From: Escherichia coli
GTDB lineage: Bacteria > Pseudomonadota > Gammaproteobacteria > Enterobacterales > Enterobacteriaceae
Direction: 5' to 3' (one strand)
Assembly (NCBI RefSeq): GCF_002854065.1
Contig: NZ_CP024147.1
DNA: 64,000 nt
A program made the translations under genes and the position numbers. Positions 22,781 through 26,802 of the stretch are shown piece by piece. The notes below the pieces were generated by a model. That model was not told the DNA's origin and searched no databases. It saw nothing but the letters and a program-made list of their open reading frames with translations. Within the stretch, counting starts at the first letter, position 1. The number at the start of each line of letters is the position of its first letter.

Positions 22781-22813
22781 CACTTTTTTGCCGGAAGTTG
22801 TTTGTATTTTCAT
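22781..22813. promoter_or_regulatory. Conserved ~31-bp motif copy A (cacttttttgccggaagttgtttgtattttcat) upstream of mpaA
   Basis: Near-identical to motif at 26772-26802 upstream of mppA (27 of 31 positions); function inferred only. Confidence 0.3.
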
Positions 22814-22974
22814 TGATGTGCAGATATTAGAATTGTCGTAATGTTATATACATGGCGTATTTTATTCTTACTGGTTCTACACATGTTAATCGCATCTGAT
22901 TGATCAGTTCACCTTAATAAGTTTAATAAATCGTACTGCACATAGTACAGTACGATGGTAGCTATATAATTGAT

Positions 22975-23613
22975 TTACATGAAGAATGGCTTATCGCCAT
23001 CAGTCCCGGGTTGATTGATGCCTATATTCTCACCAATGTGTTTCTCAGGTTTATCGATGATATCTGTGATTAATGCGGCGACACTCTTACGCGATACGAT
23101 CGTACCTTTGAATAGTTCATTGCGTGAGGTAATCTCGTAATCAATAATATCTTCATCAGTCAGCCAGGCAGGGCGAAGAATTGTATAATCCAGTCCAGAA
23201 GCCTCAATTGCATCCGCAGCCCTGCGGAATGGTTTTAGGGGCTCACCAATAACTGCATTATTCCATTCGCCAAATTTTCCTGGAACTTCATCATAAATGC
23301 CGAGGGAAAGAACAAAGATCAGACGTTTAACATCACAGGCTTTCATCGCAGCGATCACTGAATTTGCCTGAATATCTAAATCTTCCCCCGTAAGGTTGGC
23401 ATACACAATATCCTGTCCCTGCATGGCCTGCTTCAGTGCTGCATGATTCAGTACATCCCCCATAATAATCTGGCTATTAGTTGGATAGGGTTTGTGTATT
23501 TTTGCTGGCTGACGAGCAAATAAAGTTTGTTTAATGGTTTGTTTATCTGCCAGTTGATTAATCACATGGCGGGCTATCTGACCGCCAGCACCAAGAATGA
23601 GTACATTTTTCAT
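22975..23613 (-). CDS. ymjC: NAD(P)-binding NmrA/SDR-like protein (ymjC-like, apparently full length here)
   Basis: ORF track 22975..23625; N-terminal Rossmann motif MKNVLILGAGGQIARH; K-12 ymjC at this position is a pseudogene as far as I recall. Confidence 0.7.
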   Translation of the reverse strand: MKNVLILGAGGQIARHVINQLADKQTIKQTLFARQPAKIHKPYPTNSQIIMGDVLNHAALKQAMQGQDIVYANLTGEDLDIQANSVIAAMKACDVKRLIFVLSLGIYDEVPGKFGEWNNAVIGEPLKPFRRAADAIEASGLDYTILRPAWLTDEDIIDYEITSRNELFKGTIVSRKSVAALITDIIDKPEKHIGENIGINQPGTDGDKPFFM

Positions 23614-23630
23614 AATATTTCTCATGAAAC

Positions 23631-24564
23631 TTATCCCAGATGGGTGTTGAGAAAAGGAATAACTTTTTCCAGCGCCTCCTGAACTGCTTCCGGTTTGTCA
23701 TACAGTTCATAATGTGAGAAATCGGGTAATGAAACTAACTGACGATCCTGCGAAACCATCGCCCGGCCATAGACTTCCAGTCCATCACGATAAGCACCGA
23801 AGGCACCGACTTTTTCACCAACTACTACCATCACCGGCTGAGTCAGTAACACTTCAGTAAATGCGAAGGCATCCCAGGCCAGCGTTTTCTGTGCATGTGA
23901 GAACAACATTTTTGTCGCACCTCCCGGTTGTTGCCCGCGTGGTGTTTTATAGTAGTCAGTTGCTTCATAAACATCGCGTTCGGTCAGTCCATGGGCTTTT
24001 GCTGCATCCAGGCTGGCGGGAAGTAATTCGTTGATCTGTAATTCTCCACCACGAGCCTCTTTGGTTCGTTGCGACGCCATTGCATTCAATGCGCCAATCG
24101 GATCGTAATTGCTGAAACCTTCCCGAAAAAGACGCCCGATATTAACACCCGTAATACTCACTACAGCTTTAATTCGTTTTTCTGTCAGCGCGGCATTAAT
24201 GGCATAGCCACCCCCCCCCACACACACCCAGCACGCCAATGCGTTCAGCATCAACATATGGCAGAGTTACTGCATAATCGATAACACGGCTAATATCCTC
24301 TACGCGCTGTGTCGGATCTTCTATCCAACGAGGCTCCCCACCAGATTCTCCCTGGAAACTGGCGTCATAAGCGAGAACGACATAGCCTTTTTCAGCCAAT
24401 GCCTTGCCATAGATATTGCCAGACGTCTGCTCCTTACAACTGCCAAAAGGATGGACGCTGATAATCGCCGGATACTGTTTTGACTCATCAAAATTTGGTG
24501 GAAACTGAATATTGGCAGCAATATGCCAGGCCATATCACTATTGCGGATTTGAATATGTTTCAT
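23631..24564 (-). pseudogene. Alpha/beta hydrolase paralog of ycjY, split into two overlapping ORFs by a frameshift in a 9-nt G/C homopolymer
   Basis: ORF 24196..24564 (N-terminal half) and ORF 23631..24257 (C-terminal half) align end to end with YcjY (e.g. YDASFQGESGGEPR vs YDASYQGESGGEPR); frames switch at the C9 run at 24211-24219. Confidence 0.65.
24211..24219. repeat. Homopolymer tract C9 (G9 on coding strand) at the frameshift point
   Basis: Read directly: gccaCCCCCCCCCacacacacc. Confidence 0.9.
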
Positions 24565-25484
24565 TACAGAGTTTCCTCAAAGAACGGAGCTAATACTGAA
24601 ATTGCTTCAGCCACATAGGCTTTGCCGTCATAAAGATCCATATGGTTTGCGCCTTCAACAATGTGATAGCGTTTATCCTGGCTTGATGCCCGATCGTACA
24701 GGTCGTCACTCATCCATTTGCTCCCTGCCTGGCTGCCCGCCACAATCTGCGTCGGCTGAGTCAGGTACACTTCCGCCATATGGTAAGCATCATAGGTAAT
24801 AATCTGGTTAAGGCTGCGCAAAGTAGCGTAACCCGGTGCTGTTGGATACTGCGCGCGAGGGGTGTGGTAATACTCCCAGGCCTGACGCAGTTCTTCGTTC
24901 GGCGCATCGGACTCCTTCATTGGTGCCAGTGGCATAATGGCGTATTCTCCGCTGCTAATATCGCTGGTTCTGGCGTTTGAACCCGCGTCAACGTATGGCA
25001 GGGCATCAATAGATTTCACATTGTTTTCCCAACCATTACGGAACATCGAACCAATATTGACCGCACTAACGGTACCGATGGCCTTGATGCGGCGATCCTG
25101 AATTGCAGCATTGGCTGTATATCCTGCACCGGCACAAATTCCCATCGCACCAATTCGGGTATTGTCGACATAAGAAAGCGTTGTCAGGTAATCAATCACG
25201 GCACTGACGTCTTCAGTACGAATGTATGGGTTTTCTAACTGACGCGGCTCGCCGCCACTTTCACCCTGATAAGATGCGTCATAAGCAATAGTGACAAATC
25301 CCTTTTCCGCCAGTTTTTCGGCATAGGTCCCGGCCGTTTGTTCTTTAACGCCCCCACCTGGGTGAGATACCACAATTGCCGGATGCTGACGGGTTTCATC
25401 AAATTTTGGAGGGAAATAGATCACTGCAGACAAAGAGATGGTTGGATTATTGCTGTTAGTGAAGCTGACTTTATTATTCATCAT
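24564..25484 (-). CDS. ycjY: Alpha/beta hydrolase YcjY (dienelactone hydrolase-like)
   Basis: ORF track 24564..25496; start trimmed to give 306 aa; nucleophile-elbow-like GICAGAG; synteny. Confidence 0.85.
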   Translation of the reverse strand: MMNNKVSFTNSNNPTISLSAVIYFPPKFDETRQHPAIVVSHPGGGVKEQTAGTYAEKLAEKGFVTIAYDASYQGESGGEPRQLENPYIRTEDVSAVIDYLTTLSYVDNTRIGAMGICAGAGYTANAAIQDRRIKAIGTVSAVNIGSMFRNGWENNVKSIDALPYVDAGSNARTSDISSGEYAIMPLAPMKESDAPNEELRQAWEYYHTPRAQYPTAPGYATLRSLNQIITYDAYHMAEVYLTQPTQIVAGSQAGSKWMSDDLYDRASSQDKRYHIVEGANHMDLYDGKAYVAEAISVLAPFFEETL

Positions 25485-25621
25485 TCCGTTCCTCATGGAG
25501 TTGTCGGTTCGTTTTAACGGTTGGTGATATCACTATAGATATTGATCATTAAGTTGATTAGACCCAAAATCATGATTAGACCTATCATTTAAATGATTAA
25601 TAGATTGTATGGAGATACTGA

Positions 25622-26521
25622 ATGAAGCGTGAAGAAATCGCTGATCTGATGGCGTTTGTCGTCGTTGCAGAGGAGCGTAGCTTCACTCGCGCAGCAGCCC
25701 GCCTGAGCATGGCGCAGTCAGCTTTAAGCCAGATAGTGCGCCGTATAGAAGAACGATTGGGATTGCGGCTTCTGACGCGAACCACGCGCAGTGTTGTACC
25801 CACTGAAGCGGGCGAGCATCTTTTGTCTGTTCTTGGCCCTATGCTGCATGACATAGATTCTGCCCTGGCATCCCTGAGCGATCTGCAGAACCGCCCATCC
25901 GGGACAATACGTATTACTACTGTAGAACATGCAGCAAAAACGATATTGTTACCAGCCATGCGCACATTCCTGAAATCACACCCTGAAATTGATATTCAGC
26001 TTATCATTGATTATGGTTTGACTGATGTCGTTTCTGAGCGTTTTGATGCAGGCGTCCGTCTGGGTGGGGAGATGGATAAAGATATGATCGCCATTCGAAT
26101 CGGGCCAGATATACCAATGGCTATTGTTGGCTCACCGGATTATTTTTCCCGCCGAAGTGTTCCAACGTCAGTGTCACAATTAATAGATCATCAGGCAGTT
26201 AATTTGTATCTTCCCACATCGGGTACAGCAAATCGCTGGAGATTAATACGCGGTGGACGCGAAGTTCGTGTTCGCATGGAAGGTCAGCTTTTACTGAATA
26301 CGATAGACCTGATCATTGATGCTGCAATTGATGGGCATGGATTGGCGTATCTACCTTATGATCAGGTTGAGCGGGCTATTAAAGAAAAAAAACTGATACG
26401 TGTTTTGGATAAATTCACACCAGATTTACCCGGTTATCACCTGTACTATCCACATCGTCGACATGCTGGCTCGGCATTCTCATTATTTATAGATAGGCTG
26501 AAGTATAAAGGTGCTGTTTAG
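25622..26521 (+). CDS. pgrR: LysR-family regulator PgrR (YcjZ)
   Basis: ORF track 299 aa with N-terminal LysR HTH; divergent from the ycjY cluster. Confidence 0.88.
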   Translation: MKREEIADLMAFVVVAEERSFTRAAARLSMAQSALSQIVRRIEERLGLRLLTRTTRSVVPTEAGEHLLSVLGPMLHDIDSALASLSDLQNRPSGTIRITTVEHAAKTILLPAMRTFLKSHPEIDIQLIIDYGLTDVVSERFDAGVRLGGEMDKDMIAIRIGPDIPMAIVGSPDYFSRRSVPTSVSQLIDHQAVNLYLPTSGTANRWRLIRGGREVRVRMEGQLLLNTIDLIIDAAIDGHGLAYLPYDQVERAIKEKKLIRVLDKFTPDLPGYHLYYPHRRHAGSAFSLFIDRLKYKGAV

Positions 26522-26771
26522 CACTACTTGCTGATACATTAATTTAATTCTTCTCTTAACGTATTCTCAGTTCCTTTCAACGTTTTGGTTATTTTTTATT
26601 CTTCGTACAATGGCGACAGATGCTGATTATGATACCGAAAACTGGTTTGAACGTGCGAAGCCCGAACGTAGTGTTCGGTGTTCTATGTGCTTTGCCGCAT
26701 TTTGGCGTCTATTATTTACACTAAATCTGATTTAATATATTGATACATAAAACATTTTATGCTTCCTGTGT

Positions 26772-26802
26772 CACTTTTTTGATGGAAGTTGTTTGCATTT
26801 CT
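26772..26802. promoter_or_regulatory. Conserved ~31-bp motif copy B (cacttttttgatggaagttgtttgcatttct) upstream of mppA
   Basis: See copy A at 22781-22813. Confidence 0.3.

Follow-up and report, generated by a model that had tools for sequence, protein, structure and literature searches.

Does a short sequence found upstream of both mpaA and mppA in Escherichia coli mark a site where one protein controls both genes, or do its two copies look alike for another reason? The question arises in a 64,000-nucleotide stretch of E. coli DNA (NCBI RefSeq assembly GCF_002854065.1, contig NZ_CP024147.1), here called the window, whose coordinates are used throughout. In the window, the gene for murein tripeptide amidase, mpaA, lies at 21956-22684 on the minus strand, and the gene for the murein tripeptide-binding protein, mppA, lies at 26858-28471 on the plus strand. 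An earlier reading made from the letters of the window without database searches (the sequence-only reading) had placed a near-identical motif of ~31 bp upstream of each gene, at 22781-22813 and 26772-26802, and had offered two explanations for the pair: a shared operator for a common regulator, such as the adjacent LysR-type protein PgrR, or a small duplicated repeat. From the analysis described here, we conclude, with a probability of about 0.9, that a 37-bp direct junction duplication (30-37 bp given the uncertainty of its boundaries) accounts for the two motifs as its left and right copies, and that it arose when a cassette carrying pgrR was inserted between mpaA and mppA. The copies would then be alike because they descend from one sequence, and not because they bind a common protein.

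The two motifs form a 37-bp direct repeat

Both motif sequences lie on the plus strand where the sequence-only reading had put them, and its assignment of the flanking genes was correct. The similarity extends 8 nt further to the left than the span it gave, and the full repeat comprises 22773-22809 (TCTTGTATCACTTTTTTGCCGGAAGTTGTTTGTATTT) and 26764-26800 (TCCTGTGTCACTTTTTTGATGGAAGTTGTTTGCATTT), which are in direct orientation on the plus strand and 3991 bp apart from start to start. The two copies are identical at 32 of these 37 positions; over the 31-nt span first given, the ungapped match is 26/31 and not 27/31, and thus the near-identity is real while the original count needed correction. 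Beyond the 37 bp, in-register identity is 11/33 on the left and 13/41 on the right, which is the level expected by chance. The boundaries are therefore sharp, and a duplication wider than 37 bp is ruled out. With a chance per-site match probability of 0.28, taken from the AT-rich local composition, the binomial probability of at least 32 matches in 37 is ~3e-13, and a degenerate 29-nt pattern allowing up to 3 mismatches matches the window at these two positions alone and has no match in 100 shuffles.

A search of complete E. coli genomes finds the motif sequence in 5418 of 5426, with a median of 2 and at most 4 places per genome. This is not the behavior of a dispersed repeat family such as REP, ERIC, or MITE elements. 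An Rfam search returned no family at either copy, and a fold test of both strands of the copies gave no significant secondary structure, so an RNA element at the motif was rejected.

An ancestral spacer holds the sequence once

To place the repeat in its evolutionary setting, we used 80 loci around mpaA orthologues from species-representative genomes, with the neighboring genes mapped by tblastn. In 69 of the 80 loci, mpaA and mppA are immediate divergent neighbors, and these loci span E. albertii, E. whittamii, three further Escherichia species, Citrobacter, Enterobacter, Lelliottia, Leclercia, Kluyvera, Klebsiella, Pluralibacter, Kosakonia, and others. In the other Escherichia species the two genes are separated by 182 bp, and in the remaining loci mostly by 176-205 bp. 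Among the loci fetched, a block containing pgrR lies between mpaA and mppA only in E. coli and in Escherichia sp. E1V33 (locus L006). Thus, the adjacency of mpaA and mppA is ancestral, and the pgrR block is an insertion.

The anatomy of the insertion follows from alignment with the other Escherichia species. On the mpaA side, the window is collinear with positions 1-125 of the ancestral 182-bp spacer (22685-22809), after which similarity is lost entirely. On the mppA side, similarity begins at ancestral position 89 (26764) and runs to position 182 (26857). Because the left side aligns as far as position 125 and the right side from position 89 onward, ancestral positions 89-125 are present twice. 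The remaining parts are 88 bp next to mpaA (22685-22772) and 57 bp next to mppA (26801-26857), and with a single copy of the 37 bp they add up to 182 bp. Between the two copies lie 3954 bp of new DNA (22810-26763), which are missing from the spacer of nearly all the other species examined and of 174 E. coli genomes. Direct copies stand exactly at the ends of the inserted segment, the empty site holds one copy, and the insert is foreign. These features, together with flanks that sum to the ancestral spacer, are shared with the junction duplications found at illegitimate insertions and islets; what sets this one apart from typical cases is that the duplicated segment is probably half a promoter, as argued below. 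The pair is therefore a small duplicated repeat, as the sequence-only reading had suggested in its second explanation, and specifically the junction sequence that was duplicated when 3954 bp entered the ancestral spacer between mpaA and mppA.

The single ancestral copy reads TCTTGTATCACTTTTTTGCCGGAAGTTGTTTGCATTT. The left copy in the window differs from it at one position, a C to T change inside TTTGCA, and the left copy in K-12-type genomes is identical to it. The right copy in the window departs from the ancestral sequence at 4 positions, all of them in the left half of the copy. The copies in Escherichia sp. E1V33 agree at 32/34 positions, both contain GCCGG, and the right copy keeps the ancestral GCC. 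From this near-identity, we conclude that the copies were identical at the start and diverged later, and that GAT arose later in the right copy of E. coli. A weak hairpin, CUUCC...GGAAG (-8.2 kcal/mol, z = -1.8), is followed by a T-rich run and spans the end of the insert and the left half of the right copy (26761-26789); the 4 substitutions specific to the E. coli right copy add to it, and it is not conserved in E1V33.

The insert is a foreign cassette

The two motif copies bracket all four genes between mpaA and mppA. In strain CUWW06, which is 100% identical, the gene order is tpx, ycjG, mpaA (minus), a gene for an SDR oxidoreductase (minus), a gene for an alpha/beta hydrolase (minus), ycjY (minus), pgrR (plus), mppA (plus), and ynaI. 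In the window, the SDR oxidoreductase gene occupies 22975-23613 and the first alpha/beta hydrolase gene, here split into two open reading frames (ORFs), occupies 23631-24564; the gene for the second alpha/beta hydrolase, YcjY, lies at 24564-25484, these three being on the minus strand, and the gene for the LysR regulator PgrR lies at 25622-26521 on the plus strand.

The cassette is of foreign origin. The GC content of the insert is 0.43-0.50 vs 0.52-0.55 for its flanks, and the core of the cassette, 22904-26522, matches plasmids as a single block of nucleotide similarity, at 79% identity to conjugative plasmids of Klebsiella aerogenes, K. pneumoniae, and K. variicola and at 68-69% identity to plasmids of Agrobacterium and Rhizobium. 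The neighborhoods of these plasmid-borne cassettes differ each time from the E. coli locus. Homologues of PgrR that are 87-89% identical are common in Klebsiella, Raoultella, Kluyvera, Citrobacter, Enterobacter, and Salmonella. The chromosomes of Raoultella and Kluyvera carry the same four-gene arrangement, sometimes with a second SDR gene and an OYE-type reductase gene, and there the cassette never adjoins mpaA or mppA. The ancestral 37-mer was not found in the cassette loci of Klebsiella, Raoultella, and Kluyvera, even when 10 substitutions were allowed.

Terminal inverted repeats are lacking (the ends align with a score of 9.0, no better than the shuffle mean of 9.0), and the insert contains no tRNA, integrase, or transposase gene, its only genes being those for the SDR oxidoreductase, the two hydrolases, and the LysR regulator. 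On either side of the cassette core, the insert has a further 94 bp on the left (22810-22903) and 241 bp on the right (26523-26763). At its right end, 26619-26693 is a fragment annotated in O157:H7 by the Prokaryotic Genome Annotation Pipeline (PGAP) as a pseudogene of queH (epoxyqueuosine reductase), which translates as ...DADYDTENWFERAKPERSVRCSMC... and is probably a piece of donor flank. A donor in which the LysR gene adjoins an intact queH was not found among the Klebsiella plasmids, Raoultella, and Kluyvera.

Some E. coli genomes have the uninterrupted spacer

In 174 of 5418 E. coli genomes (~3%), including the ST648 clone and strain MFDS1019527, the 182-bp spacer is uninterrupted and holds the sequence once. 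There are at least two empty-site haplotypes. In one of these (loci L003 and L088), the mppA-proximal flank resembles that of Escherichia sp. MOD1-EC7003, and the other (the L087 type) has typical E. coli flanks and is clonal, belonging to the ST648 group. About 90 genomes carry the ST648-type allele with at least 99% identity across 4.3 kb of flanking sequence, and all of the 60 top-ranked records are 100% identical. In strain MFDS1019527, a prophage with a tyrosine integrase lies ~66 nt into mppA and truncates that gene (L003, 6468-6700).

The right copy probably carries the -35 element of mppA

Phylogenetic footprinting of the ancestral spacer was performed with 64 distinct sequences. Inside the 37 bp, ATCA, a T-run, AAG, and most of all TTTGCATTT are conserved, and downstream GAAACAAATAATTACGCA is conserved. 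A consensus scan of the mppA strand gives TTTGCA-N18-AATAAT as the one promoter-like site, with 9 of 12 consensus positions matched. In this probable sigma-70 promoter (26792-26821, plus strand), the -35 hexamer TTTGCA at 26792-26797 lies in the right copy and is separated by an 18-nt spacer from the -10 hexamer AATAAT at 26816-26821. Both hexamers are at least 90% conserved in the 64 sequences and the center of the spacer is variable, which is the pattern expected of a real promoter. Thus, TTTGCA-N18-AATAAT is probably the promoter of mppA, with a predicted transcription start near 26828.

If so, the right copy (DR-R, TCcTGTgTCACTTTTTTGatGGAAGTTGTTTGCATTT, 26764-26800) would cover ~-64 to -28 of the mppA promoter, supplying its -35 hexamer and the upstream region to ~-64, and the T-tract of this copy (26775-26780) could play the part of an UP element. 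The 57 bp next to mppA contain the -10 hexamer, the ribosome-binding site, and the predicted transcription start. The left copy (DR-L, TCTTGTATCACTTTTTTGCCGGAAGTTGTTTGtATTT, 22773-22809) lies 89-125 bp upstream of the mpaA start codon, where it keeps the position and orientation relative to mpaA that the sequence had before the insertion. It would be a vestigial upstream half of the mppA promoter, separated from its -10 element. The single substitution in the left copy is on the conserved C of the -35 hexamer, which fits relaxed promoter constraint there.

The sequence-only reading had looked to footprinting of both intergenic regions as a check on the motif. There are partly conserved blocks inside the motif, and the most conserved blocks of the spacer are on the mpaA side and outside the duplication. 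These are GCAGTGTTGTGCAAAT at 22714-22729 and the dyad GGATTATCAAATCC at 22735-22748, both nearer mpaA within the 88-bp part of the ancestral spacer, and they are likely the promoter or operator of mpaA, as judged from their conservation and position. A consensus promoter scan of 22600-23000 on the mpaA side found no promoter, and manual assignments there are tentative. The GATT/AATC half-sites in these blocks recall the cassette operator TGATTAGACCCAAAATCA.

Two other candidate elements were considered and rejected. An alternative mppA promoter, TTGCCG-N17-TTTAAG, located within and next to the motif, has poorly conserved hexamers. The CRP site CGTGAACCGGGTCACA that was reported for ycjZ/mppA in enterotoxigenic E. 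coli is absent from this spacer, and the motif has no CRP-like site.

The motif does not resemble a PgrR operator

Binding sites for PgrR (YcjZ) were reportedly described by Shimada et al. in 2013. Like those operators, the motif is near pgrR and upstream of genes within the functional sphere of PgrR. Unlike LysR operators, which are T-N11-A dyads in divergent promoters, the motif has no dyad-symmetric LysR box: the self-complementarity of the left copy on either strand is 0 to -2.1 kcal/mol, and the sole palindromic element in the motif is CCGG, which is lost in the right copy.

A better candidate for a PgrR operator lies within the cassette itself. In the spacer between ycjY and pgrR, the region 25540-25600 has two TGATTAGACC boxes, at 25555-25564 and 25573-25582, as well as several ATCATT/TGATTA repeats, and this spacer is nearly invariant across E. 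coli, the Klebsiella plasmids, Raoultella, and Kluyvera. The region is likely the operator of the LysR regulator of the cassette, given this conservation, and the motif is unlike it. The published data point the same way. In one report, the targets of PgrR found by genomic systematic evolution of ligands by exponential enrichment (SELEX) include the ycjY/ycjZ spacer and do not include the upstream regions of mpaA or mppA, and the PgrR regulon is listed there as ycjG, ycjXF-tyrR, and ycjY-ymfDC-mpaA, a list without mppA (PMC5934670). Another report confirms that pgrR is negatively autoregulated and mentions a binding site for PgrR at the promoter of its own gene (PMC10505187).

Nor does the motif track pgrR across genomes. 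In ~64 species the motif occurs as a single copy although the locus has no pgrR, and it is absent from the cassette loci of Klebsiella, Raoultella, and Kluyvera, where pgrR is present. The sequence-only reading had pointed out that the motif is inverted relative to one of the two genes, and this is correct: the copies are in opposite orientations relative to mpaA and mppA and at unequal distances from them. Two such sites would not be equivalent to each other. Since the motif predates pgrR at the locus, has no dyad, is unlike the operator of the cassette, and is outside the SELEX targets, the idea of a shared PgrR operator is unsupported, and the sequence-only reading as a whole is partly supported, having been right about the repeat and its position.

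How the duplication may have arisen

The comparisons above show the duplication, an insertion that took place once, the foreign origin of the insert, and the existence of empty sites. On the way to E. coli, 3954 bp of foreign DNA entered the divergent promoter region of 182 bp that ancestrally separated mpaA and mppA. The DNA that entered was a self-contained LysR-regulated cassette (the genes for the SDR oxidoreductase and two alpha/beta hydrolases and pgrR) together with what are probably short pieces of donor flank. Because 37 bp of the target were duplicated, each gene retained all of its ancestral upstream sequence (125 bp at mpaA, 94 bp at mppA). The duplicated segment would be the upstream half of the mppA promoter, with the -35 hexamer TTTGCA and a T-tract resembling an UP element, so that the right copy would still serve mppA and the left copy would be a remnant far upstream of mpaA.

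Two routes could give this structure. The foreign DNA may have been inserted illegitimately at a staggered break that was then filled in, or replication may have switched template into the foreign DNA and back, re-copying 37 nt of the target beyond the insert. Fill-in and template switching are the most plausible routes because there is no recombinase, there are no inverted repeats, and the duplication is far longer than transposon target duplications, which are 2-14 bp long. From the same features of the sequence, the event appears to have been neither transposition nor integrase-mediated recombination. Campbell-type integration of a circle that bore the 37-mer is conceivable but unsupported, since the cassettes found elsewhere lack this sequence.

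Alternative explanations for the pair

The copies could instead be binding sites for one regulator, PgrR or another, that controls mpaA and mppA together, with their similarity kept by selection. Both copies are upstream of functionally linked genes of peptidoglycan recycling, positions in ATCAC, TTT, AAG, and TTTGCATTT are conserved across genera, the single ancestral copy sat between divergent promoters where one site could serve both genes, and PgrR is reported to control a transcription unit from ycjY to mpaA (PMC5934670). However, common descent at the insertion junction fully explains the similarity, and the evidence given above on the age of the motif, its lack of dyad symmetry or a LysR-type box, its unlikeness to the conserved operator region of the cassette, and its differing distance and orientation at the two genes all speak against this explanation, as does the published information on SELEX targets and the regulon. 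In addition, TTTGCATTT, the most conserved part of the motif, is better explained as a -35 element. We regard a shared operator as improbable. A related idea, which we also consider unlikely though less so, is that the duplication was retained as a bidirectional element, an UP element or a conserved regulator site, on which both mpaA and mppA depend; an insertion would have been tolerated only if it duplicated this element, and the two copies would make the pgrR cassette reversibly excisable. If this were true, reversible excision would explain the ~3% of E. coli genomes that lack the cassette.

Another possibility is that the copies are recombination sites, either the attL and attR of an excisable island or a transposon target duplication, and that the empty sites come from site-specific excision. 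Direct repeats do lie exactly at the boundaries of the foreign segment, single-copy empty sites occur in several E. coli lineages, and the spacer is a recurrent insertion point, since Salmonella enterica subsp. arizonae and diarizonae carry a putative cdtABC-like islet there. The mpaA-mppA spacer thus appears to be a recurrent landing site for foreign DNA. Nevertheless, an integrase island would have a recombinase gene or a tRNA, and the block has neither; a transposon would have a transposase and terminal inverted repeats, and here the block has no transposase, the inverted-repeat score equals the shuffle mean, and 37 bp far exceeds the length of transposon target duplications. Moreover, the cassette is not flanked by the motif in Klebsiella, Raoultella, and Kluyvera, and the Salmonella islet, unlike the E. 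coli insertion, shows no comparable flanking repeat. We therefore find recombination sites very hard to credit. As for a chance similarity between two promoter regions, both regions are AT-rich intergenic DNA and short two-copy families are often chance matches, but the binomial probability and the empty shuffles given above, together with the exact coincidence of the copies with the insertion boundaries, make the likelihood of this negligible.

Several points weigh against a junction duplication as the full account of the pair. The mechanism for the 37-bp duplication is only inferred, with no recombinase, transposase, or junction microhomology identified, and the assignment of the mppA promoter comes from consensus match and conservation. 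In principle, some other regulator could bind the motif and act on both genes, given that ATCAC, TTT, and AAG are conserved across genera. Finally, the single-copy sequence in E. coli fits a retained ancestral allele and a secondary precise deletion alike; for a precise deletion, the crossover would fall in a 17-bp identical block, and the flanks of the empty sites diverge from the window by ~2%, a value that favors neither origin.

Implications for the locus

Recognition of the junction duplication replaces a tempting regulatory reading, that of two identical PgrR operators, with an evolutionary one. The gene pgrR, which is named for regulation of peptidoglycan recycling, is part of a horizontally mobile cassette of hydrolase and oxidoreductase genes. 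This cassette reached the site between mpaA and mppA in the E. coli lineage alone, and ~3% of E. coli genomes lack it. Gene neighborhood is thereby weakened as an argument for a link between PgrR and mpaA or mppA. The analysis also predicts a concrete, testable promoter for mppA, for which the strains that carry or lack the cassette form a natural comparison set. We found no description of this duplication in the searchable literature. On the features compared here, it belongs to a familiar class, the junction duplications that flank islets, and as such is a modest piece of genome archaeology.

Further observations on the cassette and its surroundings

The first hydrolase gene of the cassette, which is a paralogue of ycjY, appears in the window as two overlapping ORFs on the minus strand, 24196-24564 and 23631-24257; it is intact in CUWW06 and frameshifted in O157:H7 strain PV15-279. 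Alongside the paralogy with ycjY, direct repeats D1 and D2 lie ~915 bp apart. In K-12-type genomes, a deletion corresponding to 22811-23475 of the window begins 1 nt after the left copy (compare L002, 2411-2420, and L006). Lost in this deletion are the 3' two-thirds of the SDR gene, of which the ymjC fragment remains, and a hairpin downstream of that gene. Thus, the published ycjY-ymjD-ymjC-mpaA operon of K-12 may be a consequence of this later deletion and not the original arrangement.

The hairpin in question lies at 22930-22956 on the minus strand, just past the SDR stop codon. It is strong and terminator-like, with a 12-bp stem followed by a U-rich tract, and its 86-nt context has a folding energy of -19.9 kcal/mol (z = -2.8); a simple terminator scan missed it. 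Where the cassette is intact, this hairpin would be expected from its form to insulate mpaA from transcription of the cassette. Inside the pgrR coding sequence, 25972-26076 gives a sub-threshold Rfam hit to RAGATH-10 (28.5 bits vs a gathering threshold of 41.2, E = 0.022), which is probably a chance match. In O157:H7 strain PV15-279, ycjG is interrupted by ISEc8, of the IS66 family (L084, 2510-4822). The Salmonella arizonae/diarizonae islet (L024, 7449-9677; L026) is 3.1-3.4 kb long and encodes a 275-aa protein and two lipoprotein-like proteins, which by eye look like a putative CdtB-like protein (275 aa) and putative CdtA/C-like proteins.

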